From positions 1 to 38,639 of the forward strand of contig DGSJ01000054.1 of the NCBI GenBank assembly GCA_002393905.1: a stretch of 38,639 nt of DNA, given 5' to 3'. Position numbers and translations under genes: made by a program. Source of the DNA: Bacillales bacterium UBA4365. Lineage in GTDB: Bacteria > Bacillota_I > Bacilli_A > RFN20 > CAG-826. Positions 1 through 16,004 of this stretch are shown piece by piece (the first letter of the stretch is position 1; each line of letters opens with the position of its first letter). Below the pieces are notes generated by a model. That model worked only from the letters and a program-made list of their open reading frames with translations. It had not been told where the DNA came from and did not search any database.

Positions 1-48
1 AAAACAAATAATTGAACGATGAATAACATCGATAAAATGAACGCAACT

Positions 49-717
49 TTATAAGACATTAACCATTTCCTCCATCACTGTAATAATTCCAAATGTGACC
101 ATCACAATTAGGATGGAACTACCGACTAAAGGAAACGTGGACATTGAGGCTAATGAGTTACGTTTCTTGTTGATTTCTTTTTCATATGCGAGATCGCTAA
201 TCTTACCAAAAATGAGATCAAATTGAGATAGATGGGATGGGTTAGATCCATCATCAATCATTTGATAGATAGAGATCATCATTTCTTCAATAATTAAATC
301 GTTAAACTTTCGACCAAATCGAATAAATGGATTAATTGTCTTATCTTGATCGATGTCACGAATTAAATCGGAAAGATACAAAGCTAATTGTTTATCGGCA
401 AAAGCTTGAATCTCTTTTAACGCTGTATAAACAGAATAGCCATTATGGAGATAAATTTTGAAAAAGGTAAACAAAGAGACAAAATCTTGTTTTGCTAAAT
501 CATTTTGTTCTTTTTCCAATTTTGAATATCGTGAGAAATAGAACAAATTAAACAAAATAACAAAGACTAATCCAACACCTAAATAGATGTAAGAATTAAG
601 CATATAGAAGGCAACTATACCTAGAGCAAGTAAAACTAAACTAAAAGCTAATGCAGTTGTAAGCTCTTTTTTTATAGATAAGCCAAGATTTGCTATTCTT
701 TCTTTGAGTTTTTTCAT
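49..717 (-). CDS. T2SS-F domain (TadC-like) polytopic membrane platform protein
   Basis: ORF 49..897 trimmed to the internal ATG at 717 (MKKLKERI...). GGAGGA (revcomp of 724-729) lies upstream, and there is an ATGA overlap with the upstream stop at 714-717. Layout is an N-terminal TM pair, a helical cytoplasmic segment of about 100 aa, and a C-terminal TM, as in GspF/TadC family proteins. Confidence 0.6.
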   Translation of the reverse strand: MKKLKERIANLGLSIKKELTTALAFSLVLLALGIVAFYMLNSYIYLGVGLVFVILFNLFYFSRYSKLEKEQNDLAKQDFVSLFTFFKIYLHNGYSVYTALKEIQAFADKQLALYLSDLIRDIDQDKTINPFIRFGRKFNDLIIEEMMISIYQMIDDGSNPSHLSQFDLIFGKISDLAYEKEINKKRNSLASMSTFPLVGSSILIVMVTFGIITVMEEMVNVL

Positions 718-1412
718 ACTTGATCCTCCTTCACGATAATTGAGGAATAACGAACAATGAAAAGGTGAATTGAGAAGAGTACAACGAGAAAAAACATTGA
801 TAAAAAGAAGAGAAAAATCGACGATTTTGACATCGTTATGTAAAACGAACTGATTGAAAAGCGAATGAAGATTAGCACAGATACCGCCATTACCCATAGA
901 AGTATAAATTGACCCAAATAGCGGTTCGATTCTGCTAAGGAGTCGCTGATACTCTTCTCAATTCTTGTTGATTCGCTAATCAGTTCGTCAGACATGCTTA
1001 AAATATTTCCGCCTTGATCTTGGTATAAACCAAGGACATTTATAAACATTTTGAATACAGCTAAGTTAAAGAACTCTCTTAAATAAGCAATACGATCACT
1101 AACATTTAAGTTCTCTATCTCAGGTGTAATCTCATTTAATTCTTTATCTTCAAATCTAATTCCACTTTGATAAGCATCTTCTAAAGATTCTTTAACAGAC
1201 ATCGAAATAATAAAGGCATTAATAAAGTGATAACAAGCATGACAACGTCGAACTAATCGATCTTTTTTAATTAAATATTTTCGACCAATCAAAAAATAAT
1301 AAGCGTTAAAGAGCAACACAATTCCGATTGGGAGATAAATCGTCGGACTAGTAAAATAGCTCACAACAGCAAGCGCAAAGGTTATTAAAACATAAAAGAT
1401 ATCTCTTACCAT
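714..1412 (-). CDS. T2SS-F domain (TadB-like) polytopic membrane platform protein
   Basis: ORF 714..1427 trimmed to ATG 1412 (MVRDIFYV...), preceded by AGGAGAG (revcomp of 1416-1422). Has N-terminal TMs, a helical soluble segment and C-terminal TMs. Lies directly downstream of the secretion ATPase. Confidence 0.55.
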   Translation of the reverse strand: MVRDIFYVLITFALAVVSYFTSPTIYLPIGIVLLFNAYYFLIGRKYLIKKDRLVRRCHACYHFINAFIISMSVKESLEDAYQSGIRFEDKELNEITPEIENLNVSDRIAYLREFFNLAVFKMFINVLGLYQDQGGNILSMSDELISESTRIEKSISDSLAESNRYLGQFILLWVMAVSVLIFIRFSISSFYITMSKSSIFLFFLSMFFLVVLFSIHLFIVRYSSIIVKEDQV

Positions 1413-1420
1413 AAACTCTC

Positions 1421-2368
1421 CTAACAATGGAATTTTTCAACTAAAACTTTGTTTTCGACTTCTCCAATTGCCTCAATATAACGATGGACATTTCCATCTT
1501 TTGTAATATCTCTACGAACAAAGACATAAACGGGGATATGAGAAAGTAAATCTCCCATAATGTCGTCATACGACTCTCTTGTATCAGCCATTTCAATCAT
1601 TCGAACTAATCGATGAGGCATCGACATTAGTGATTTAGCGTGCATCGTTGTAATAATTGGGTGCCCGGTCATTACACTTGTAAGAACATCGTTCATCTCT
1701 TTTCCACGACTTTCCGCGACAACGAGCCAATCTGGATTTGATCTTAAAGCCTGACGAATTAGGTCATTTATTGAGGAATTGACGTGGTTTTCATTCGCTT
1801 CCCAAGAAGTTATGTCTAAATTTGGATTAGAGCGAATGAACTCTAGTTCTTGGACGTTATCGATAACAATTACCCTGCTGTTATCCTCTAATGAGGTTAA
1901 TAAGTATTTCTGAAGTTCTGTTTTTCCCGATCCAGTTGGGCCTCCAATGACAATTGATTTTTGCTTCTTTAAACAATCTAGTAAAAAGGCCTTCATTTTT
2001 GGATTCATAAAGGATTTGCTGGTTAAAATGCGATTATTTGGCGACGCAATACGAATTGAAAATGAGATTGATTTTTCGTTTTCAACACGAACAATTGACT
2101 GGTGAATTGCGTTAATGCGGTATTTGCCTTCAGAAACATCAATTGATGGGTTAGTATAGGAAAATTGCTTCTCTGCTAAATTAGCGATTTGACGGATAAA
2201 CACCGCAACCTCATCTTTTGAAACTTCAATGTTCGATTTCTTCCTTCCGAATTGGTTGTGAAGATAATAAACATCCTTTCCGTTATAAGAATTATCAGTA
2301 ATTTCGGTGTCACTTAAAAGAGGTGACAGGAAAGATGATTCTAAATAAGTAACAAGCTCTTTATTCAT
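1421..2368 (-). CDS. CpaF/TadA/VirB11-family type II/IV secretion ATPase (short form, about 315 aa)
   Basis: Walker A GGPTGSGKTE, Asp-box RVIVIDNVQELEF, Walker B-like PDWLVVAESRG, His-box GHPIITTMHA. Start ATG 2368 (MNKELVTYL) follows AGAGGTGA and overlaps the upstream stop by 8 nt. Confidence 0.8.
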   Translation of the reverse strand: MNKELVTYLESSFLSPLLSDTEITDNSYNGKDVYYLHNQFGRKKSNIEVSKDEVAVFIRQIANLAEKQFSYTNPSIDVSEGKYRINAIHQSIVRVENEKSISFSIRIASPNNRILTSKSFMNPKMKAFLLDCLKKQKSIVIGGPTGSGKTELQKYLLTSLEDNSRVIVIDNVQELEFIRSNPNLDITSWEANENHVNSSINDLIRQALRSNPDWLVVAESRGKEMNDVLTSVMTGHPIITTMHAKSLMSMPHRLVRMIEMADTRESYDDIMGDLLSHIPVYVFVRRDITKDGNVHRYIEAIGEVENKVLVEKFHC

Positions 2369-2765
2369 TGATTTCACCTCTTGAATTGATCCGAAATTCA
2401 CGACTGTGTTTGTAGGTATAAAACATATTGATTTTCGAAGTTAAAGAAATGCGAACTCCATCGGCGTGATGATTGGTATTGACTGCATTTGTGCTAACAT
2501 CGAAATAAATAATTGACGCTTTATAATCTGTCGTATATTTACCAACATTATCTTTTAGATAATCAATCACGTATTTTTCGAGTTGAGGTTCATTAAAATA
2601 TGGTTTTACATCTTCTCCGTCATCCCCAATTGTGACAACGCTAATTTCAAGAATGCTGCGATGCATATTTAAGAACGAACGATGAATACTTGATTGCGTC
2701 ATTCCTCCAAATGAAAATGTCAAAAAGAGAACAAACCCAAAAGTGAAGAAAAGACAGTTAGTCAT
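2361..2765 (-). CDS. Small N-terminally membrane-anchored protein, unknown function (134 aa)
   Basis: ATG at 2765. Hydrophobic N-terminus MTNCLFFTFGFVLFLTFSFGG followed by a soluble domain of about 110 aa. Has 8-nt overlaps with both neighbours. No family recognised. Confidence 0.5.
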   Translation of the reverse strand: MTNCLFFTFGFVLFLTFSFGGMTQSSIHRSFLNMHRSILEISVVTIGDDGEDVKPYFNEPQLEKYVIDYLKDNVGKYTTDYKASIIYFDVSTNAVNTNHHADGVRISLTSKINMFYTYKHSREFRINSRGEINE

Positions 2766-3789
2766 GTTTTAACTCCTTTCCAATATCACTAAATTCGACA
2801 TCATTTGTCTTAATGCAATACTCCGAAGAAACGCAGTTCCCCATTCGTGATCGTTCTGCTTCAATGGAGAATGAGTAGCTAAAATCAATTCTCATCGTTC
2901 CGAGTTTTTCACCCAGAATTGTAAAATCGAGCTTTTGAAGATCCTTAAATCCGTTTTTTGGAAGATAAAGATACTTTGTTTCAACAAACCCTGGAAGCTG
3001 GCTTCTTGCCATTTCATATGTATAAGGATTTACATAGAGTTTATCCTTAAATCGAAGTTGATATTGATGGTTACCAACATCAACAAAATCGAGGCTCAAT
3101 TCAACTCTGTTATAAGCGATTTCGTCATCCCTTAAATCACAAAATAAACCGTAAATTGCTGGGATTCCTATAGAAATTATGTAATATTCGATCTCGATTG
3201 GAATATCGTAAATTGTCTCAGTAAAACTAAACATTCCAACATCAAGTTTGTTATAAATATTCATCTCATTTATCGCGTACCAATTTTTAAATTCGTACTT
3301 ATCTGATGAGGTGAAATAACCTCTACTTTTGGTGTATGATGCAACATTAAAACTTTCATAGGTTGCTGTTTGAAGTTGGTCAACAACTAAACGAGGTGGA
3401 TTGTTTGCCTCAATCATGTCAAACCAGTGATTTGTCGTCTGACCATCACCGTCGCTAAAAAATATTTTGATTCGGTTTTGTTCGCCAGATCTCATTAAAG
3501 TCCCGGTTGATGTTTCACTAATTAGACCACTTTCATCACTCGGACGAAGGTTTTTGATCTTTGTTCCGGTTTTATATTTCGAATTATAAAGGTAAAAATT
3601 AACTAATTTTCTTGTTACTGGACCATTGCTTGATAGTTTTGCGAAAACTTTTACACTTCTGGATTTATCAGCATAAAAAGGAGTAATGTGAAAATAATCC
3701 AACTCATAACGCTGTACTTCCGTCGCACCAAAGGAAACTCCACACGTGAGCATGCATAATACTAATGGAATAAGCTTTTGTTTTATCAT
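2758..3789 (-). CDS. Exported protein with N-terminal signal peptide, unknown function (343 aa)
   Basis: ORF trimmed to ATG 3789 (MIKQKLIPLVLCMLTCGVSFGATEV...). AAGGAG lies upstream and there is an ATGA overlap with the upstream stop. Composition is beta-rich. No family recognised. Confidence 0.55.
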   Translation of the reverse strand: MIKQKLIPLVLCMLTCGVSFGATEVQRYELDYFHITPFYADKSRSVKVFAKLSSNGPVTRKLVNFYLYNSKYKTGTKIKNLRPSDESGLISETSTGTLMRSGEQNRIKIFFSDGDGQTTNHWFDMIEANNPPRLVVDQLQTATYESFNVASYTKSRGYFTSSDKYEFKNWYAINEMNIYNKLDVGMFSFTETIYDIPIEIEYYIISIGIPAIYGLFCDLRDDEIAYNRVELSLDFVDVGNHQYQLRFKDKLYVNPYTYEMARSQLPGFVETKYLYLPKNGFKDLQKLDFTILGEKLGTMRIDFSYSFSIEAERSRMGNCVSSEYCIKTNDVEFSDIGKELKHD

Positions 3790-4121
3790 AATGAGTGATA
3801 CTCCTTTAAGAATGCTTGAATCGCACAATGGCGTAGGCGATAAAGAGTAGATTTTTTGTAAATTCCCTTCCACCACTCGTTATAAACCTTGTTATCGCCA
3901 CGAAATGACTGAGTTATAAGATAAGATTGGAGTGGTTTAATGCTATCGAGAGCGACATGAATTTTACGAACATCATCTCTAAACTTGGCTAATGTCTCAT
4001 CTTTCCCCTGTGAAGAGAATTTGAGATTATTACGGATGTAACGATATTTCAGATGGACGTCTTTGAATATCGAGACCATTTCTCTTGTTTCTTCGATGTG
4101 GTAATCATGTTTTTTATGCAT
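3786..4121 (-). CDS. Small basic protein with sigma-70 region-4 / ArpU-like C-terminal HTH (putative operon activator)
   Basis: ORF trimmed to ATG 4121 (MHKKHDYH...), preceded by GGAGGGG. The C-terminal segment KKSTLYRLRHCAIQAFLKEY resembles the recognition helix of region 4.2 in small phage-type sigma-like activators. It is the first gene of the coupled operon. Confidence 0.35.
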   Translation of the reverse strand: MHKKHDYHIEETREMVSIFKDVHLKYRYIRNNLKFSSQGKDETLAKFRDDVRKIHVALDSIKPLQSYLITQSFRGDNKVYNEWWKGIYKKSTLYRLRHCAIQAFLKEYHSL

Positions 4122-4226
4122 AGTTTTTCCCCTCCGCAAAAAATTGCTTATATTAACTTAATCCGCAAAATCGCACCATTTTTTGCACTAATTTTTTTCA
4201 AAAATATTTTTAATATAAAAATTTTT

Positions 4227-4256
4227 TTGTTTTTTTGACCTTGGGACACTTATAAT
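4227..4256 (+). promoter_or_regulatory. Putative promoter of the gmk-like gene (possible leaderless mRNA)
   Basis: TATAAT at 4251-4256 lies only 6 nt before ATG 4263, with no Shine-Dalgarno (SD) sequence. A weak -35 TTGTTT at 4227-4232 gives an 18-nt spacer. Confidence 0.3.
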
Positions 4257-4262
4257 TGAAAT

Positions 4263-4796
4263 ATGCTTATTCTTTGTGGCGCTTCAGCAAGTGGAAAAAC
4301 AGTCACTGCTCTTAATCTTCAAAAACGTTTTGGATTAGTAAAAGCCATCACCACAACTACCAGAGCAATGCGTGAAGGTGAAAAAGATGGAGTAGATTAT
4401 TTTTTCATCTCCAAAGAAGAGTTTGAAAAGAAGCTTAAAGAAGGAAAGTTTGTTGAATCATCCTTATATAATGGAAATTATTATGGATGTGGAAAAGACC
4501 AAGTCGATGATAACAAAGTTATCGTACTAGATCCGAATGGGTTACATGCCTTCCAAGCTCTAAATGATCCTCGAGTAATCACTGTTCTATTAATCTGCGA
4601 TCCAAAAAAGAGAGAAGAAAGAATGGTTGGTCGTGGAGACAAAAAAGAAAAAATTGAAGAACGATTAAAAAACGACCAATACGACTTCTCATTAGACAAA
4701 GTTCAAGGTGTTCATTTAGTTGTTCATACAGATAATAAAAACATCGACCAAGTGGCCGATGAAATTTATTCATTTTATCAATCAAAGATGAGATAA
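4263..4796 (+). CDS. Guanylate kinase family protein (short, 177 aa)
   Basis: P-loop CGASASGKT. The segment TTTTRAMREGEKDGVDYFFISKEEFEKKLKEGKFVESSLYNGNYYG matches the Gmk core pattern (TTR..R.GE.dG.dY.F.s.eeFe). It is the only plus-strand CDS. Confidence 0.65.
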   Translation: MLILCGASASGKTVTALNLQKRFGLVKAITTTTRAMREGEKDGVDYFFISKEEFEKKLKEGKFVESSLYNGNYYGCGKDQVDDNKVIVLDPNGLHAFQALNDPRVITVLLICDPKKREERMVGRGDKKEKIEERLKNDQYDFSLDKVQGVHLVVHTDNKNIDQVADEIYSFYQSKMR

Positions 4797-7973: not shown

Positions 7974-10900
7974 TTATTTAACAGTACGTTTTTTGCGTTT
8001 TGCTAAAACGATTAATAACCAAGCAGTTGTTGCTTGAACTGCTAAAGTAGCAGCAGCGGCAACAATGAGGTATGGAGCTGGATTACTTCCAGCAACATGA
8101 GTTTCCACTAATCCATAAATGGATAAGTGGTTAGTAGTAAAGACCATGTAGTTACCGTCTCTTTCTCCTTCAAGACGGCTAACTTCACCAGCCTCGTTAA
8201 CATAGGCTAAGACAAGTTCATGATCCTTATAGGTATCAGGAACAAGAATACGGATGGTAAATTTAAAGTTTGGATCGATAATCTTTCCATCAGCATCAAC
8301 ATTGATGTGGGCAAGCGAACCATCAGCATTAAATAAATTAATGTCATATAGGACAGCAACATCAACTGTACCGGTCTTCACGATCTTACTAAAGTCATAT
8401 TTAGAAGCATCAGTAGCTTCAGCGTGTAAAGTGTAATCACCTTTAATACCACTACTTAATGAGACCCAGACAAGAGATGTACCGGCTTCATTTTGTTCAA
8501 CAGAGTAGAATTCACTACGAGTTGGAACTGGTGCGCCTTCGGCGATCTTCCAGACTAAGGTTAATTCGACTGATTCACGAATTTCACCATTATAAATGAG
8601 TTCATTTCCACTTGAGGTGTATAAACGAGCATAAGCAATGTATGTGCCTGGATCTTTAGCACTGGTTGTACCAGTGTACTCAACTTTAACACCGGTTGGG
8701 ACATCAATGACGCTCACCTTGTGGCTATTGCCATCATAGGTGAATGGGTTGGTGTAATCCCATGTGACGTTAGAAACGTCAATTCGGTGTAAAGTAATTT
8801 CCCAGTTAAATTCTTTTTGGTAGTTTGGATCAAGACGGTAGTTAGTATGATCGTATGAATACGAAACCTTGACAGTGTATTTGCCAACTTCGGTCGCACT
8901 ACGTGTCTTGCTATAGTTAACACCAGTAATTTCTTCTGGTAAGAGGTCTTCCTTGATAGAAACCGAGATTTCTTGTCCAGTGTATTCAAACTTATCTTGG
9001 ACAAGGCTCATGTCTGCTGGAATTTTAATGACTGCTCTTTCAATTTCCCAGCTTAAGTCACTAAAGTCAATACCTTTAAGTTCAGTTGTTTCTGGATTAT
9101 CAGCAACAATGTGGGCTACCGCTTTATAAGTGCCAGCGTTGGTCATCTCGTTGTCGGTGTATTCAACATGTACTCCTGCAGGAAGTTGTGATTCAACAAG
9201 ATGGACACTTTGAGTTTGACCATTATAAGTAAATGGTCCTTGGTAATCCCAAATGATATCTTCTTGGTGAACAATGATTAGTTGTTTGCCAATGCTCCAA
9301 TGATATTGACCATCATTTGGTGCGCTCCAAACATAGTTTTCTGGATCGTTTAATTCAATGTCAACGACATAGTCGCCTGGCATTGATTCTTTCACATCAC
9401 CAGTTCCATGGAAAGCGAGTTCATCTTCACTAGTTGCTCCAAAGGAGGTGTAGTAATCGTGTTCGATTCCATCATAAATCATTTCTTCAGTTTGTGTTGG
9501 GAAATCAACGACAACTTGGTCGATTGTCACAACAATCTCTTCTTGTTTGACTCCGTCAACAACACAGTAATATGTTCCGCTATCCTTGTGGTTTTTCACA
9601 GTGATGGAGGATTCAGTTTGATCAGTTAATAAGACACCATCTTTGTACCACACAAATGAATATTGATGATTCATTTCGATGTTTGGTGTCACTTCAATGG
9701 TGGATTCTAATCCATCATAAGTTTTACTCACATCTGCGCTAGTTGTGAACCAAACTGGGTATGCATCTACGTCATGAGCAGGCATGAGGTAGAGATATTC
9801 GTATGAAGCATCACTAAGTTGTTCGGCCCAGCCAACAATATTGTGGAGCTGACCACCTTCATAAACAGTTTCACGGTTAGCAAAGAATGGAGCTTCCACA
9901 TCAATTGGAAGAGCACCGGTCTTCACTTCACCAGCAACGTGGTAAGAAATACGATATAAATCGTGTCCAGTGAATGTTAAATCAAAGCTTAATGATTCTG
10001 GAAGTTTATCAAAGAATGCTGAAAGTAAATCGGCAATCTTTGGACCAATCTTTGGAATCTTACGAACGAGTTTGGTGATATTAAAGGTAAAATCACCAGA
10101 GCCGGCCCATACGCTATCGCCAACATAATAATCCATTAAGGATTTTTGACGGTATCTTTCTGGGACATGGGCATAGAGTTTTTCGAGTAATCTTTGGAAA
10201 CGATTGTAGTACGAGGTAACTTTCGCGTTTTCTAAGTATTCATCAATCTTGTCGTTGACACGGTTATTAAATTCTTCAGATGTGTATTCACTTAATAAAT
10301 CGTGTAAATCTTGAGCATTATAGTTACGATCAGCAATCTTCTTAAGAAGTTTTTGAGCTTTTTCATAGATTTGGTTGATCTTGTCCTTCATGTCTTCAGG
10401 AATTTTGTAGAACTTATCAACGAGTTCATAAACTTTTTCAATATCAAGTTCGGCGCCTTTATTAATGGCTTTGAAAAGAAGATCGATAAATTTATCGACT
10501 CTTTCTTGAGTCACAAAACTGCTGATACCGAAGAATTTTTTAATTTCGTCTGCCGAAATAATTGATTCAGCAAGCATGTGGTAATCAACTTGAGCAGCGT
10601 TTTCTTCTAAATCATAGATGGTCTTAGCGTGAACATGTTCATAGGCTTCATCAACTGTGGAGAAGGCTAAGTCAAATAATTCATGCTTTAAGTCATCATC
10701 AAAGATGTCGCTTTCAATCACATAACGATACATGTTCGCTAAGAAGTTTGGCATATCAATGCTCACGACATAGCGACCATCAACTTCGCTAATCTTCACA
10801 TGGTCATCTAAGATGCCAGCAAGTTTACGAAGATATTTACAATTTCCTTTGAATCCGAAATTGACATCAAGAGTCACGGCTTCAACAGAGGTATCTAAAA

Positions 10901-12191
10901 CAATGTGGAAGTTATGTCTCCACTTGCTATCCTCAAGGTTACGAAGTTTATTAAGTGAGGCGGTTTTGCCGAGTAATTCAACAATACCATCCCATTGGAA
11001 TACTTTGTCCTTCATGATGAGAATTTCATCAATGTGGATGTTCTTAATCGCATTCCAAACGTCTTTAGCCTTAGTTAATTTAGTAACTTCTTCAATAAAA
11101 TCAGTTTTATCAAAGTCGTTAACGTATTGAATGATTTCACGTGTTTTATCAACACCGATATCACCAGCAATTTCAATGAATGTGGAAATACCAATGTTTT
11201 CTAACATGTCATTTAAATCAGTTCCAGTAAAGTCAATTTCACGAAGGATCGCTTGAATAACTTTTGTTGGGCAGTTAGCAAAGAAATTCTTGATTTCACC
11301 TTTACTGGCATTATTGACAACTTCAAGAATGGCGTTCTTAGCGCTTGTTCCGCCTATGGTGGCTAATAAGTCACGAACACCAGTTTCATGTGTTTGAGTT
11401 GGATCATCTTGAACAAGAAGAAGCATCGCGCTAATGTGATTCAAATTAATTTGGAATGAATCAGAAATAATTTGTTCACCAGCGAAATGGAATTGGGCGT
11501 ATGTTTGATTAATTGTTGCGTTAAATGGACTATAGGTTCTAAAAGCAAGTAGGGTACAGAAGTCATTTAAGACATTTGCACGAACTTCGCTAGTGTTCTC
11601 TAATCCATTACGTTTAATGTATTCTTGGACATAGAAGTAGGCATAACCAGTCACGACTTGTTCAGTTACTTGAGCAAGTTCGTGTCCACCACCATCAACT
11701 TGAGTGTAATCAAGGATCATTTCTTGATAGACACTTAATGTACGATAGGTGTTTTCTTCATAGACCATTTGTGGGTTACCTGGTTCAATTGGACCAGTGT
11801 AAGCTTGGACTGGATGGCCTTCTTGACCGCCTTTACCGTCAACGGAAGATGTGTCGACGTCTGTTTCTACTTCAGATAGTTCAGTAATTTTTGTATGGAC
11901 AATATCCTTAAGAATTTCCTTTATGGAATTTTTTAATTCATCTAAGTTTTTCTTACGGAAGTTTTTGTATACTCTTGGATTGGCGTTGAATAAAAGTTCG
12001 ATGGAGTGATCACCAGTCTTACGAATGGTGTACATCTCGTTGTCAACATCGTATTCAGATTCGTCAAGAGTAGTTCCTTCAGCACTTACTGGTTTAACGT
12101 CGTGTAAGTGACCGACTGAAAGACTGCACGCTAAAAGGGCAGGGAGAACAACAAATACTGTTCGTTTAAAAAACATACTAAACTTCTTCAT
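7974..12191 (-). CDS. Giant surface protein: signal peptide, helical N-terminal region of about 800 aa, five MBG/Ig-like repeats, C-terminal TM anchor
   Basis: ATG 12191 (MKKFSMFFKRTVFVVLPALLACS...); the ORF track start at 12209 is TTG. Five repeats of about 75 aa (roughly aa 826-1222, nt 8535-9752) share F/YxYxG...(V/I)..Y....(A/P)GxY. The C-terminus is a hydrophobic helix followed by KRKKRTVK. Confidence 0.8.
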   Translation of the reverse strand: MKKFSMFFKRTVFVVLPALLACSLSVGHLHDVKPVSAEGTTLDESEYDVDNEMYTIRKTGDHSIELLFNANPRVYKNFRKKNLDELKNSIKEILKDIVHTKITELSEVETDVDTSSVDGKGGQEGHPVQAYTGPIEPGNPQMVYEENTYRTLSVYQEMILDYTQVDGGGHELAQVTEQVVTGYAYFYVQEYIKRNGLENTSEVRANVLNDFCTLLAFRTYSPFNATINQTYAQFHFAGEQIISDSFQINLNHISAMLLLVQDDPTQTHETGVRDLLATIGGTSAKNAILEVVNNASKGEIKNFFANCPTKVIQAILREIDFTGTDLNDMLENIGISTFIEIAGDIGVDKTREIIQYVNDFDKTDFIEEVTKLTKAKDVWNAIKNIHIDEILIMKDKVFQWDGIVELLGKTASLNKLRNLEDSKWRHNFHIVLDTSVEAVTLDVNFGFKGNCKYLRKLAGILDDHVKISEVDGRYVVSIDMPNFLANMYRYVIESDIFDDDLKHELFDLAFSTVDEAYEHVHAKTIYDLEENAAQVDYHMLAESIISADEIKKFFGISSFVTQERVDKFIDLLFKAINKGAELDIEKVYELVDKFYKIPEDMKDKINQIYEKAQKLLKKIADRNYNAQDLHDLLSEYTSEEFNNRVNDKIDEYLENAKVTSYYNRFQRLLEKLYAHVPERYRQKSLMDYYVGDSVWAGSGDFTFNITKLVRKIPKIGPKIADLLSAFFDKLPESLSFDLTFTGHDLYRISYHVAGEVKTGALPIDVEAPFFANRETVYEGGQLHNIVGWAEQLSDASYEYLYLMPAHDVDAYPVWFTTSADVSKTYDGLESTIEVTPNIEMNHQYSFVWYKDGVLLTDQTESSITVKNHKDSGTYYCVVDGVKQEEIVVTIDQVVVDFPTQTEEMIYDGIEHDYYTSFGATSEDELAFHGTGDVKESMPGDYVVDIELNDPENYVWSAPNDGQYHWSIGKQLIIVHQEDIIWDYQGPFTYNGQTQSVHLVESQLPAGVHVEYTDNEMTNAGTYKAVAHIVADNPETTELKGIDFSDLSWEIERAVIKIPADMSLVQDKFEYTGQEISVSIKEDLLPEEITGVNYSKTRSATEVGKYTVKVSYSYDHTNYRLDPNYQKEFNWEITLHRIDVSNVTWDYTNPFTYDGNSHKVSVIDVPTGVKVEYTGTTSAKDPGTYIAYARLYTSSGNELIYNGEIRESVELTLVWKIAEGAPVPTRSEFYSVEQNEAGTSLVWVSLSSGIKGDYTLHAEATDASKYDFSKIVKTGTVDVAVLYDINLFNADGSLAHINVDADGKIIDPNFKFTIRILVPDTYKDHELVLAYVNEAGEVSRLEGERDGNYMVFTTNHLSIYGLVETHVAGSNPAPYLIVAAAATLAVQATTAWLLIVLAKRKKRTVK

Positions 12192-12233
12192 AGTTATAAT
12201 TATATACAAAGATATAATTTAATAAATAGAAAT

Positions 12234-15200
12234 TTAATGTTTAATTATTTTTCTAAAAATAAAGAATAATCCAACTGCGAGGCCAACGGAGAGGCCACCA
12301 ACAGCAACATAGCCAGCGATTTCAACAGCTTTAGAAGTCTTTCTTTCACTCTTTTGCTGACGTTCAACTTTAATAAATTCTGCACGTAAAACAGTGTCGC
12401 TTGTCACGGAGATTGAATCAGCACTAATTCCCCAACCTGTAAAGAGGTATTCATAGGTCTCATCGCCCACTTTTTTGATGTAGGTTGGAAGGGTGATTGT
12501 GTCACCGTAGTTCACTCGATATGATGCATACAATGCATCATCAACATAGAGTTCTAATGAATATTGAAGCCTTGTACAAACAAAGTTAATGATGACGTCA
12601 TCTGATGGCATAACAAAGTTATTTTCAGCGTCAATTACCACCGCACTTCCGCCTCTTGTACGAGCGATCATGTACTCGAGTTTATAACCTTTTTGAACAG
12701 TATATTCGATATGAACTGTCTCACCAACTTGACCACCTTTTTTCGATAGACTAACGTCAACAGAACTTGAGGCACTAACTAAGACAGAATAGGCTGGAAT
12801 AACTTCGTAAGTAAGATTAATTTGTGCTCTAAATTGCACTAATCCATCGGATAAAGAAGCGTTTACTTCTTCGCCGTCAAGATAGACTTGAGAATGAAGG
12901 TAATCGACATTTTTATTGATTGTGACTTCAGGATAGAAATCTGGAATTAAAACATCATTTCCATTTTCATCTTTAACAACAATTTCAATCGAATAATGAC
13001 GATTTGATAAATCAAGGAATTCAATTCCGATGGTTTTTGCATGACGCATGATTAAATATTTGACTTGGGTTGAAGTTAAAGTAACTTCTCCATCGTTAAA
13101 CATTAATCGAAGCGGACAAACACTCAGGTCTCCTTGACCCATCATTGTTAAAAGATAGGAAAGATCAACTTCGTTTAAATGAGAGAGCGCGGCATCAACT
13201 TTTAAGGTTTCTCCAACATAGTTGTAGTAGATTCCACCACCAATGTAAGGAGTTTTTGTGTAAGTGGCGATGTAACTAGTACCACTCTTGGTCCATCCAG
13301 TAATGTCGTAATGGTAAAAACCATTAGAGTAGGTTGATGGTTTATCGATTTCTTCGCCTGGTAAATATTGACCAGTCAGAATAATTGTTTGGCCATCAAT
13401 CTTTAATAAGATTTCTGGATAAGCATGGTTGACATAGGTTGCTTTAATGGTACGGTTTGATGTCGCTGTTCCTAAAGCTTGGTCAAATGTGAAGACACTA
13501 TAGTATTGTTCTCCACGAATTGGATCAGGAATGTTTCCTTTATAGGTCACGGTTTCTCCCGCGAGATATTTTTCTTTAGAAATCTCACCAAGAATGTTCC
13601 ATGTAATCGTGTAATATTTATCAAACGAAGCGTGATAGGTTGTCTCTTTTGTGACTATGTGAAGACCTGGAAGAGTTTCTCCTTCTTCCATCCAACTATT
13701 AATCACATAAGTTGTGCCATCTTCAAGTTCGAATGTTTTTGGAGCATTTGGATCGTAGTTTTCTTTTTCTTTTTTGTGGATCAGATTTCCATCAATTTCG
13801 TAGGTAATATCAAAGATATCGTATTCTTTAAATACTGCTGTATAGGTTTCAGCTGAGTCAACTTCTTCTAAAGAAGGAGACCAACAATCGAAGACATAAT
13901 AATGCTCATCAGTCTCTTCCTTCTTTGGAGCTTTTGGAGCACTTGGAATACTTCCAGAAGTAACATTCGTTGTTAATGTTTCATCTGGATAGACCCAGGT
14001 GATTTCATAACGTTGACGATCACCAGTGTCAAAGACAGGGTAGAGGTTTATTGATTCAGAGATTGTTCGTAAATCAACTGGGTTTGCACTATTATCAGAC
14101 CAATAGTCAAAGAAATATTCGATGAAATATTCGTCTCCTGGTTTATATGGAACTTCAAATTCGTAGTTCACTCCGGTTCCAGTAAAGAAGACAAAGTGAG
14201 ATGGATGATCTTGATAATCTCTAAAGATAACGACTTTATCTTGGTTAAGATTAACTTCACGACTTCCATTAATGGAAATCTTGACTGATTGAGTGAGAGG
14301 TTCTTTTTCATGAACTTTATCATTTCGATAAGCATCTAGTAGGTCAGAATAAATCTCTCCTTCTAAAATGGAAGGGTAATCTGGCGCAACAGCGCTTGGA
14401 TCATATGGAATTGGTTCAAGAACTTCTTCTGGAGCAGTTGGTTCACTAACCTCCGCTGGAGCAACTGGTTTTTGGACAATTGTTGGTTCAACTGGAACTG
14501 GTAATGTTGGAGGTTCTGGAATTAATACAACTTGTTTAGTTGGTAGAATTCCGGATGATGGGGTTGCCGTCATGCTTGTATTAATAAAGTCATAACCTTT
14601 TAACCAAGTTAAATAAGTTGATCCTTCGATTTGGAAATTTTCATCTAAGATTTGTGCTCCTGGTTTAGACATGTCACCTTTTCCAGTGACTGGATTAAAG
14701 GCTTCGTAGTTATAAATCGGAGTATCACAAACAGCGTTAGCAAAATAAATCAGTTGAAAAAGAAGGGTATAGAATTGCGGGAGTTTCCCACGATCTTTAG
14801 CGACGTTTTTAACTGATTCATATCGACCAAGACGTTCTAATGAACGAAGTAGAACATTTGTATTTGATTTGATGTAGTTGTAGTTGATGTAATAGTAAGA
14901 ATAACGAGCTTCATCAGTTGTGAGTTCGTTATATTCTCTAAAGCAGGTTCTAAGTTTCACTGTGGCTGCATCCGCTGCATCAACTAGATCGGTTGGAACG
15001 CCTAAAACGGATAATTCATCTTTTCTAGCAAGAACAGAAGCAACAGTGTTACTAAGTAAATATTGTGCTAACGAAGAACTACGTTGAGTATCCTGCTCAT
15101 AAGCAGCCTGCATGGCGCTAAGTTGGTAACGAGAGTTCTCGTATTTAATGCCGAATTCTTGGTAGTCTTTGAGATTTTGTTCATGATTAGCTAGGTAATA

Positions 15201-16004
15201 AGCCCAATCTTCTTGGTTTTGTTTATAATTAGCAACATCGATTTCGTATTGAGCTTTGGCTTGTAAATATGCGTTATATTTAGCTAAATCTTCTTCATAT
15301 TTCGACTTGTTTACTAAGTAAGTCTCGTAGTTTTCTTTCTTGTTGAGATAGGATTGGTAATCTTCTAAGTATTTGTTATATTCAGCAAGTTGGCTGTCGT
15401 ATTCCAGTTCGCTTGTTGGTCTTCTGTTATAGTAAGCGAGATCATCAAGATATTGTTCATATGTATTATCTAAAGATAATGCCGCTTCATACGAGTCATT
15501 AATAAACGAGTTAAAAACTTGACTAGAGACATCAAGTTCAAGTTGGTAATTAATTTTCGCTTTTTCTAAACCAGTAGCAGCATCAAATTCCGCAACATAA
15601 AGTCCGTCATAGTTAACAAACGAAACATTAGTTTCTGCTTCAACAGTTAAAGGAATCCAAGTCCAGGTTCTTCCATTACCATCAAGGTAGGTTGACTCAT
15701 GAGCGAAAACATATTCTTTGTCCCCAATGCGAGATGTTTTAACATCATCTTCTAAGAAGGATTCCGAATATGTTAAAGATTTAGCTGAAGTTTCATTTAG
15801 ATAATTTACTTCGGATTGATCAAGTTCAATCCCACTTTTTGATAGTAGGTCACCAGCTTTTAAAATAGCTAGATGAGTTCCATCAGAATAATCAAAAAGT
15901 CCTTCCGCATTTCCTATGGAGAGGCTGGAAGTAGAAAGCGCTAGCGGAAGCGCACAAGCTAGTATGCTTAACGAATAAACGAATCTAAAGCGGGACTTAT
16001 TCAT
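12234..16004 (-). CDS. Giant surface protein: signal peptide, Tyr-heptad coiled coil, globular insert, Pro-rich segment, Listeria-Bacteroides (Flg_new-like) repeats, C-terminal TM anchor
   Basis: Signal peptide MNKSRFRFVYSLSILACALPLALS. Tyr-heptad region aa 170-305. Pro-rich PEPPTLPVPVEPTIVQKPVAPAEVSEPTAPEEVLEPIPYDP at aa 495-545. Repeats of the type Y.ItW......v..G...P..P......Y.F..W aa 595-920 and 1147-1213. The C-terminal helix is followed by FRKIIKH. Confidence 0.8.
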   Translation of the reverse strand: MNKSRFRFVYSLSILACALPLALSTSSLSIGNAEGLFDYSDGTHLAILKAGDLLSKSGIELDQSEVNYLNETSAKSLTYSESFLEDDVKTSRIGDKEYVFAHESTYLDGNGRTWTWIPLTVEAETNVSFVNYDGLYVAEFDAATGLEKAKINYQLELDVSSQVFNSFINDSYEAALSLDNTYEQYLDDLAYYNRRPTSELEYDSQLAEYNKYLEDYQSYLNKKENYETYLVNKSKYEEDLAKYNAYLQAKAQYEIDVANYKQNQEDWAYYLANHEQNLKDYQEFGIKYENSRYQLSAMQAAYEQDTQRSSSLAQYLLSNTVASVLARKDELSVLGVPTDLVDAADAATVKLRTCFREYNELTTDEARYSYYYINYNYIKSNTNVLLRSLERLGRYESVKNVAKDRGKLPQFYTLLFQLIYFANAVCDTPIYNYEAFNPVTGKGDMSKPGAQILDENFQIEGSTYLTWLKGYDFINTSMTATPSSGILPTKQVVLIPEPPTLPVPVEPTIVQKPVAPAEVSEPTAPEEVLEPIPYDPSAVAPDYPSILEGEIYSDLLDAYRNDKVHEKEPLTQSVKISINGSREVNLNQDKVVIFRDYQDHPSHFVFFTGTGVNYEFEVPYKPGDEYFIEYFFDYWSDNSANPVDLRTISESINLYPVFDTGDRQRYEITWVYPDETLTTNVTSGSIPSAPKAPKKEETDEHYYVFDCWSPSLEEVDSAETYTAVFKEYDIFDITYEIDGNLIHKKEKENYDPNAPKTFELEDGTTYVINSWMEEGETLPGLHIVTKETTYHASFDKYYTITWNILGEISKEKYLAGETVTYKGNIPDPIRGEQYYSVFTFDQALGTATSNRTIKATYVNHAYPEILLKIDGQTIILTGQYLPGEEIDKPSTYSNGFYHYDITGWTKSGTSYIATYTKTPYIGGGIYYNYVGETLKVDAALSHLNEVDLSYLLTMMGQGDLSVCPLRLMFNDGEVTLTSTQVKYLIMRHAKTIGIEFLDLSNRHYSIEIVVKDENGNDVLIPDFYPEVTINKNVDYLHSQVYLDGEEVNASLSDGLVQFRAQINLTYEVIPAYSVLVSASSSVDVSLSKKGGQVGETVHIEYTVQKGYKLEYMIARTRGGSAVVIDAENNFVMPSDDVIINFVCTRLQYSLELYVDDALYASYRVNYGDTITLPTYIKKVGDETYEYLFTGWGISADSISVTSDTVLRAEFIKVERQQKSERKTSKAVEIAGYVAVGGLSVGLAVGLFFIFRKIIKH

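Follow-up and report, generated by a model that had tools for sequence, protein, structure and literature searches.

The stretch of DNA analyzed here (hereafter, the window) is the 38,639-nt contig DGSJ01000054.1 of Bacillales bacterium UBA4365 (assembly GCA_002393905.1; GTDB order RFN20, family CAG-826). At its left end lies an operon that probably encodes a small, divergent relative of type IV filament machines. Six tightly coupled genes, g1 to g6, occupy the minus strand from position 4121 down to 49. The first gene, g1 (3786..4121, 111 aa), overlaps g2 (2758..3789, 343 aa) by 4 nt in an ATGA at 3786-3789; g2 overlaps g3 (2361..2765, 134 aa) by 8 nt at 2758-2765; and g3 overlaps g4, the gene of an ATPase (1421..2368, 315 aa), by 8 nt at 2361-2368. 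An 8-nt gap at 1413-1420 separates g4 from g5 (714..1412, 232 aa), which shares a second 4-nt ATGA overlap, at 714-717, with g6 (49..717, 222 aa). All of these junctions had been located in a preliminary description made from the letters of the window, and the coordinates given for them were exact on re-reading. A clear Shine-Dalgarno sequence of the GGAG/GAGG type precedes five of the six starts (AAGGAG for g3). Two of the genes end in TGA, which indicates the standard genetic code and not the Mycoplasma code.

The exact ATPase sequence is also found on an 89-kb public scaffold (L001) that prolongs the window leftwards, and two further genes were read from it. The first, g7 (113 aa), begins with the ATG at 59..57 (MSYKVAFILSMLFIVQLFV…; MSYKVAFILSM…) and overlaps g6 by 11 nt; its 5′ end occupies window positions 1..59 on the minus strand, and the rest lies at L001:12310-12651. 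The second, g8 (67 aa; MSEIKGQLLGIVLAIALFGVVFGILVNSF…), lies wholly past the left edge of the window at L001:12666-12869 and is preceded by a strong ribosome-binding site. The preliminary description had expected the operon to continue beyond the edge with pilin-like genes, and g7 and g8 were found there; the ATG at 29..27 that it read as the start of the gene after g6 is an internal Met of g7. On the 3′ side of g8 lies a terminator, a 14-bp hairpin followed by a U-run (−23.5 kcal/mol, z = −3.98), and beyond it acpP and then unrelated genes. Two tRNA-like sequences, read by eye, follow acpP at about 13240-13410 of the scaffold. The operon consists of eight genes, g1 to g8. At its other end, an AT-rich intergenic region (4122..4262) separates g1 from a divergent guanylate-kinase-like gene (4263-4796, plus strand, 177 aa, PF00625). 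A scan by consensus found no promoter site 5′ of g1; a TAATAT hexamer resembling a −10 element lies within the region, which presumably holds the promoter of the operon. In public annotation the ATPase alone is named: NCBI labels g1, g2, g3, g5, g7, and g8 "hypothetical protein," the label that JGI gives to homologues of g6.

When one genome per GTDB species was scanned, 208 stretches with a relative of the ATPase were found, and 80 loci were kept. In those with enough flanking sequence, tblastn recovered the eight proteins in the same order, and their lengths were nearly constant (g5, about 235 aa; g6, about 222 aa; g7, 113 aa). Lengths and order are repeated in the genomes of 80 other species, so that the gene calls of g1 to g6 do not represent chance open reading frames (ORFs), and the conservation of gene order that had been proposed as a check extends to the entire eight-gene set. 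Clustering of all flanking ORFs revealed one shared chromosomal setting in approximately 60 species, in which the operon stands between the guanylate-kinase-like gene and acpP. The former, divergently transcribed, was found upstream in 63 loci and acpP downstream in 58, with two CNNM/CorC genes further upstream. A single conserved context of this kind points to vertical inheritance and not to a mobile island. The retention of the guanylate-kinase-like gene beside the operon suggests in its own right that the two have long been linked or are controlled from one region.

The nearest genome, "Bacilli bacterium RGIG3288" from goat reticulum, has 98% ATPase identity, and the named carriers of the operon include Candidatus Fiminaster equi and Candidatus Alloenteromonas pullicola. 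We take Candidatus Alloenteromonas to be the former "Candidatus Enteromonas." Candidatus Enteromonas corresponds to GTDB UBA733, of order RFN20 and family CAG-826 (PMC8035907). Peptidoglycan is predicted to be missing in the RFN20 families CAG-826 and CAG-288, the order has no srtA/B sortases, and the lineage is undergoing genome reduction (PMC10868615). The early guess that the organism is wall-less fits the predicted loss of peptidoglycan in CAG-826; it is plausible, although not proven for this metagenome-assembled genome. The same operon and synteny were also seen in bins titled Oscillospiraceae, Coriobacteriaceae, Bacteroidaceae, Lachnospiraceae, and Gemmiger formicilis (L015, L027, L028, L029, and L054). 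Wrong labels or contamination of the bins probably account for these titles, more so than true occurrences in those taxa.

The ATPase g4 is a hexameric-type secretion ATPase of the GspE/VirB11/TadA/FlaI superfamily. All four motifs previously reported for this 315-aa protein were located: the Walker A motif (GPTGSGKT, aa 143-150), the Asp box (aa 166-176), the Walker B motif (DWLVVAESRG, aa 213-222), and the His box (TGHPIITTMHA, aa 234-244). It scored 82.5 bits on Pfam T2SSE (cutoff, 24.9) and fell under the cutoff of every NCBIfam equivalog (TadA-type TIGR03819, 120.8 bits; FlaI, 109 bits; VirB11, 103 bits; ComGA, 64 bits, for which the cutoff is 300). The best NCBIfam match carries the name "TadA family conjugal transfer-associated ATPase." When the family profile was compared with the PDB, archaeal GspE (2oap) ranked first (89.8 bits), followed by HP0525 (83), FlaI (72), Brucella VirB11 (66), and CpaF (57), and a single-sequence search of g4 against solved structures gave an agreeing order. 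Precomputed annotations place a further Pfam family, PF27713 ("UCP018868"), on homologues of the ATPase.

Among 72,556 plasmids, the best matches of g4 were "CpaF/VirB11 family" ATPases on Firmicutes conjugative plasmids. They include the ATPases of a P. larvae plasmid (33.6% identity, E = 4e-46), of a 72-kb B. velezensis plasmid with a block of the pLS20 type (31% identity), and of pXO2 and E. faecium plasmids. Rhizobial CpaF and proteobacterial VirB11/TrbB reached about E = 1e-9 to 1e-14 at best. In a rough neighbor-joining tree without archaeal sequences (314 columns, 100 bootstraps), the RFN20 ATPases were monophyletic (bootstrap 100) and sister to the Firmicutes plasmid "VirB11-like" ATPases (100), and S. 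meliloti CpaF, a Rhizobium ATPase, and actinobacterial TadA formed a separate clade (98). The label "CpaF" given to g4 in the preliminary description is not supported: in the rough tree the protein falls outside the CpaF/TadA clade and beside ATPases of the pLS20 p37 type, and CpaF scored lowest of the close PDB relatives. "Tad/CpaF" is right for the architecture only.

Directly after g4, as separate genes, come g5 and g6, which are putative platform subunits A and B and the counterparts of p38 and p39 of pLS20. Both proteins are polytopic and are laid out alike, with a ~120-residue soluble domain between two transmembrane segments on the N-terminal side and one or two on the C-terminal side; in g5, the hydrophobic stretches at aa 1-43 and 164-228 enclose the soluble domain. 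The two are weakly paralogous (hhalign, 48%, E = 1.8e-4, 137 columns). In the window, g6 matched Pfam T2SSF over the whole profile at a level below threshold (E = 0.22), and g5 gave no match to it. When 46 homologues of each protein were scanned singly, T2SSF was the commonest weak Pfam match in both families, with 11 such matches in the g6 set (best E = 0.0016) and 6 in the g5 set (best E = 0.045). Genuine TadB/TadC of S. meliloti scored 70-75 bits on the same model. A search with the g6 profile among 5.8 billion proteins yielded 260 family members, none with a Pfam domain on record and none bridging to T2SSF; a hidden Markov model (HMM) of g6 run against 1.84 billion representatives yielded 354 clusters, with no T2SSF bridge among the matches listed.

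AlphaFold2 (AF2) models were made for two proteins, g2 and g6. The 12 best Foldseek matches of the g6 model (predicted local distance difference test, pLDDT, 81.7) in the PDB were the cytoplasmic domains of EpsF, OutF, and PilC together with the GspF-like SpoIIIAB, with probabilities of 0.97-1.0 and target-normalised TM scores of 0.60-0.67; TcpE ranked 15th. The view of g6 as a GspF/PilC-like platform is well supported by its modeled fold, and g5 is presumably a platform subunit of the same kind. The preliminary description had proposed two platform proteins resembling T2SS-F (of the type II secretion system) and had staked the proposal on T2SSF hits. By that condition it formally fails, as neither protein reaches HMM significance. 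Recurrent T2SSF matches below threshold favor it, and the modeled structure rescues it for g6 only.

The last two genes encode pilin-like proteins. The N-terminus of g7 matched that of Pfam TadF (E = 6.5e-4, 20.1 bits) under the cutoff of 27.3, and g7 is a putative TadE/TadF-like minor pilin; its homologues are nearly all 113 aa long and begin MSYKxG-FILS. For g8, which was found in 73 loci, 65 distinct homologues of 45-74 aa were collected. M1, E3, K5, G6, and F18 are invariant among them, and the consensus MSE[IVL]KG[QTHNS]LL…, with ~20 hydrophobic residues, leads into a short and highly variable tail (MSEIKG|QLLGIIL… is the N-terminus in the operon of the window). Both families thus have a six-residue polar leader that ends in Gly and is followed by a hydrophobic helix (KG|Q in g8, KxG|F in g7), Gly6 being invariant in g8 and predominant in g7. 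Judged by these N-termini, g7 and g8 resemble proteins that carry a class III signal peptide, Gly being at −1, and g8 would be cleaved after Gly6. The KG|Q leader of g8 presumably resembles a class III signal peptide of archaea in which Gln stands at +1, and recalls substrates of the EppA type, which we regard as a lead only.

The three proteins ahead of the ATPase are less readily placed. The product of g1 appears to be cytoplasmic, with no hydrophobic stretch, and is a possible regulator with a helix-turn-helix C-terminus. The preliminary description called it sigma-r4-like, which it may be: it matched the NCBIfam MG284/MPN403 C-terminal domain (E = 4e-8, 33 bits) under the cutoff of 37.3, and DUF1492 and FliA region 4 weakly. 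The C-terminus is conserved (WW…YSKxTxYRxR…F), and clustering placed a homologue of ~108 aa upstream of g2 in 60 loci. A comparison of the g1 profile with PDB sequences gave nothing meaningful, and nothing relevant was found in the literature on MG284/MPN403.

The product of g2 has a single N-terminal hydrophobic segment (aa 5-25) and is predicted to be exported or anchored by its N-terminus. It had no match in Pfam or NCBIfam. Its AF2 model is all-beta (pLDDT 81.7; predicted TM score, 0.76), with three tandem beta-sandwich (Ig-like) domains, and Foldseek returned only generic tandems of Ig folds (Fabs, transglutaminase beta-barrels, and an ice-binding adhesin). The modeled fold is typical of surface or adhesive proteins and does not suggest a pilin, which makes g2 a candidate adhesin or accessory protein. 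It is present in 68 loci and has a conserved C-terminal motif (YVNPxTxEM…FYLPxN…GxCxxSxYC). A lipoprotein assignment was rejected, as the Cys of "LLTCG" is not kept in distant homologues.

The bitopic membrane protein g3 (hydrophobic segment, aa 1-23) is translationally coupled to the ATPase. Clustering found it in 77 loci, always adjoining the ATPase, with the consensus SGINRxF…E…PYFD…Y; it had no family match in Pfam or NCBIfam. A fused query of g2 and g3 returned just 15 g2 homologues. Profile comparison showed no similarity of g3 to g7 or to the p36-like plasmid proteins, and it was rejected as a paralogue of either. In their C-terminal halves most g3 homologues conserve two cysteines (Cys…Cys), in place of which the clade of the window has …NTNHHADG…; this sub-lineage seems to have lost a putative disulphide.

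The relationship of g4 to plasmid ATPases extends to the genes around it. A collinear block was found on the B. velezensis plasmid, on pXO2, and on E. faecium pEMA120. It comprises, in order, an adhesin gene (thioester-domain or SpaA-like) and the genes of a ~126-aa transmembrane protein, the ATPase, a ~268-aa membrane protein, a ~245-aa membrane protein, a ~120-aa protein with an N-terminal transmembrane segment, and a ~47-aa hydrophobic peptide. In pLS20 the block corresponds to genes 34 and 36-41, of which the adhesin is called Tie, p37 is a "putative VirB11," and the rest are "Unknown" (PMC8557374). With hhalign, g5 matched the p38-like proteins (75%, E = 2.5e-5, 191 columns), g6 the p39-like proteins (96.8%, E = 2e-10) and a P. 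larvae plasmid protein annotated "FlaJ" (97%, E = 1e-10), and g7 the p40-like proteins (89.6%, E = 1.9e-6). The match between g3 and the p36-like proteins was not significant. An equivalence of g8 with the p41-like peptides was rejected on the same ground, the match being one of architecture alone. At the level of sequence and profile comparison, the ATPase/g5/g6/g7 core is homologous to p37-p40 of pLS20. On pXO2 (L090, 8508-8786) and pEMA120 (L091, 8461-8739), a 92-aa "TrbC/VirB2 family protein" follows the block, and an extra p41-like peptide stands ahead of the ATPase; such plasmids may combine two kinds of pilin-like subunit. Our literature searches found no work that links RFN20 to pili, that sees a machine of the type IV filament kind in the pLS20 block, or that describes a Gram-positive conjugative pilus with VirB11 and PilC.

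Two features of the window lie apart from the operon. Two very large ORFs on the minus strand, at 7974-12209 (1411, or 1405, aa) and 12234-16004 (1256 aa), adjoin the CNNM/CorC genes upstream, and the public gene calls of the matching scaffold record no Pfam family for either. Between about 33000 and 37000, the G+C content falls to 0.29-0.31 and GC skew is strongly negative. The matching scaffold region carries SLFN_AlbA_2/HATPase_c_4 and PRiA4_ORF3 genes, and this part of the window could have been acquired as an island or could be an insert related to defence.

The interpretation that we favor, with somewhat better than even confidence, is that the eight genes specify a minimal and highly divergent machine resembling those of type IV filaments. 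It starts from the gene set, its coupling, conservation, and synteny, the family of the ATPase, the fold of g6, and the homology of the core to p37-p40. It also draws on the weak T2SSF matches and weak paralogy of g5 and g6, the leaders of g7 and g8, the weak TadF match of g7, the Ig-like tandem of g2, and the predicted lack of peptidoglycan and sortases. In this machine, g4 would assemble as a hexamer on the cytoplasmic side of the membrane and dock on a platform of g5 and g6, each contributing one cytoplasmic helical bundle of the GspF/PilC type. ATP-driven movement of the platform would lift the short pilin-like g8 from the membrane, and g8, with one hydrophobic helix and a short tail, would polymerise by stacking into a thin helical fibre, which the TadE/F-like g7 would probably prime as a minor pilin. 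The bitopic g3 and the exported, Ig-like g2 would be accessory or adhesive parts, and g1 a small regulator. In a bacterium of the gut or rumen that probably has neither wall nor sortases, the fibre would most likely serve in attachment to the host, to feed particles, or to other cells. The preliminary description had also spoken of a minimal or divergent type IV filament module. Its ATPase-centred operon with two platform-like paralogues is retained here; what falls away is the CpaF label and T2SSF membership at the HMM level.

Several results weigh against a filament machine. The filament is predicted from genes and has itself not been seen. The ATPase was the only one of the eight proteins to reach a curated family threshold in Pfam or NCBIfam. 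Neither g7 nor g8 matched a pilin family model (Flp_Fap gave no match at E ≤ 10), the g8 profile matched no PDB pilin, and the Glu5/Tyr6 of Flp pilins is lacking, with Glu/Tyr at +5/+6 in 0 of 65 g8 sequences. For the platform, the profiles of g5 and g6 gave nothing meaningful against PDB sequences and nothing significant against TadB/TadC of S. meliloti by hhalign, and the Foldseek E values of the 12 best matches of g6 were just 0.1-0.5. No A24 prepilin peptidase was found in the window, in L001, in locus L087, or within ±8 kb of the 80 loci by the GxGDxK motif in a membrane context, by a tblastn search of 1.09 Mb with an A24 query from Rhizobium, or among recorded Pfam calls. No TadZ-like ATPase was present among the eight genes or, within 8-10 kb, their conserved neighbors. 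As CpaB and a secretin are also missing from the locus, the earlier observation that none of prepilin peptidase, TadZ/CpaE, CpaB, and secretin is linked to the operon was correct.

Four other explanations were weighed against these results. A competence pseudopilus like ComG, supplying DNA or nucleotides to an organism with a reduced genome, seems unlikely to us. Monoderm type IV filaments commonly serve transformation (PMC6668835), genome reduction is documented in the lineage, and g4 does match ComGA weakly, but that score is far under the cutoff, and no comEA/comEC-like gene was found among the conserved neighbors. ComGB is moreover a single platform with two domains, against two genes here, and the Glu5 of ComG pilins is missing from the pilin-like proteins.

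Still less do we expect a conjugation module, in which g4 would be a traffic ATPase of the VirB11 type and the membrane proteins would belong to an apparatus for DNA transfer or mating-pair formation, the role assumed for the homologous block on plasmids of the pLS20 family. The chromosomal location of the RFN20 operon, in one guanylate-kinase-like/acpP context across ~60 species, speaks for vertical inheritance; tblastn over 1.09 Mb of RFN20 loci found no homologue of VirD4, VirB4, or the p028 family, and no relaxase-like conserved neighbor appeared among the clustered flanking ORFs. These absences have to be set against an affinity to plasmids. The nearest annotated ATPases lie on Firmicutes conjugative plasmids and form the sister clade of g4, the p37-p41 block is collinear with profile homologues of g5, g6, and g7, and in P. 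larvae it sits between VirD4 and VirB4. The names in use, "putative VirB11" for p37 (PMC8557374) and a conjugal transfer-associated ATPase for the best NCBIfam match, point the same way.

We give equally little credence to the idea that no fibre is made, and that g4 and the platform export g2 or other proteins, insert them into the membrane, or display them on the surface, with g7 and g8 as small membrane subunits of the translocon. We know of no system that pairs an ATPase of the g4 family with GspF-like platforms in the absence of a pilus or pseudopilus. An invariant g8 N-terminus with a variable tail also fits a polymerising subunit, and the terminal position of g8, with its strong ribosome-binding site and own terminator, is the arrangement expected for a major subunit. 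Export without a fibre would, for its part, agree with the large adhesin gene ahead of the plasmid blocks (thioester-domain, SpaA-like, or pLS20 "Tie"), with the Ig-like, surface-type g2 of RFN20, and with the lack of a peptidase in the loci searched. It would agree as well with the p41-like peptides of the plasmids, which have no conserved Gly at −1, and with the high rank of SpoIIIAB in the structural comparison of g6, since this GspF-like protein belongs to a channel and not to a pilus.

Very improbable is an ordinary Tad/Flp (type IVc) pilus too diverged for HMMs, with TadV and TadZ elsewhere in the genome: the ATPase-platform-platform order is that of tadA-tadB-tadC, the pilin is short, g7 matches TadF weakly, and compact Tad loci are reportedly found in monoderms, but g4 lies outside the CpaF/TadA clade with CpaF the lowest of its close structural relatives, there is no Flp motif and no match to real TadB/TadC, and the tad locus of Bulleidia (see below) is quite different.

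Bacteria of the RFN20 group, which turn up often in metagenomes of rumen and gut, are not known to have been cultured. If a filament-like machine is the right reading, the operon would be the first candidate for a surface organelle in RFN20. Standard pipelines miss it, with seven of the eight proteins below every curated family threshold. For the evolution of pili, it would provide a test case for the minimum size of a type IV filament machine, and it raises the question of whether a dedicated prepilin peptidase and Glu5 are truly indispensable. The homology to genes 37-40 of pLS20 further suggests that a device akin to type IV filaments is encoded on Gram-positive conjugative plasmids of the pLS20/pXO2 type. 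Gram-positive conjugation is commonly stated to work without pili, and a device of this kind on the plasmids would run counter to that view.

A broader proposal, which we consider possible yet rather doubtful, is that the RFN20 operon and the p37-p41 blocks of the pLS20/pXO2 type constitute a distinct, unrecognised branch of type IV filaments, separate from Tad and from the VirB11 of diderm type IV secretion systems (T4SSs). This branch would be marked by a split GspF-like platform and by ultra-short pilin-like subunits with either an archaeal-style KG|Q signal or no dedicated prepilin peptidase, and RFN20 would hold the free-standing form of a machine co-opted by Gram-positive conjugative plasmids. 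In that case the "VirB11 plus unknowns" genes of pLS20-family plasmids would build a pilus-like fibre used in mating.

Among known systems, the Tad/Epd branch is set apart by its short pilins and split platforms (PMC6668835). The RFN20 operon shares with Tad/Flp systems an ATPase followed by two separate genes of putative single-domain platform proteins, a very short putative pilin, and a small TadE/F-like protein, and a monoderm needs no secretin (PMC6668835). It differs in that g4 is outside the CpaF clade, g8 has no Flp G/XXXXEY motif, and g5 and g6 are below the T2SSF threshold and unmatched to S. meliloti TadB/C. TadV and TadZ, both present at the S. meliloti locus, were not found at the RFN20 locus or in the flanks searched. 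A canonical Gram-positive tad locus from a related order, that of Bulleidia, has 13 genes with tadV first (PMC12786226). The archaeal Epd system (ATPase EpdL, platforms EpdJ/EpdK) likewise has a split platform and short pilins (PMC6668835), which are cleaved by EppA, and archaeal GspE and FlaI are among the best solved-structure matches of g4, whereas the RFN20 host is bacterial and neither a peptidase of the EppA/FlaK type nor a FlaH/KaiC-like partner was found nearby. A possible archaeal relationship of the system is indicated by the PDB scores of g4 and the KG|Q leader of g8, the tree having no archaeal taxa.

ComG is a type IV filament operon of monoderms with an ATPase, a platform, and small pilin-like proteins, and its peptidase, ComC, is encoded outside comG. 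The RFN20 operon has, on the reading favored here, the same kinds of component and likewise no peptidase of its own. It differs from ComG in its ATPase (64 bits on ComGA, as given above), in a platform split over two genes where ComGB is one protein with two T2SSF domains, and in its pilin-like proteins, since those of ComG have Glu5 and are recognised by standard models and g7 and g8 show neither. The SpoIIIA system, considered on account of the structural match of g6 to SpoIIIAB, was rejected: the similarity to SpoIIIAA was E = 0.0012, and the AC-AH genes are absent.

The comparison with the pLS20-type block was the closest in gene content. Order and sizes match those of the RFN20 operon, a gene of the adhesin type stands upstream, and the ATPases, which form sister clades, are 30-37% identical over their full length. 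The two nevertheless differ in several respects. The ATPase has 315 aa in RFN20 and 372-475 aa on the plasmids, the p41-like peptides show N…R…G…P and not MSEIKG, a gene of the TrbC/VirB2 family lies 3′ of some plasmid blocks, and the RFN20 operon is chromosomal and syntenic, without T4SS genes nearby. The RFN20 operon is, in these terms, a chromosomal, free-standing relative of the pLS20-type plasmid block.

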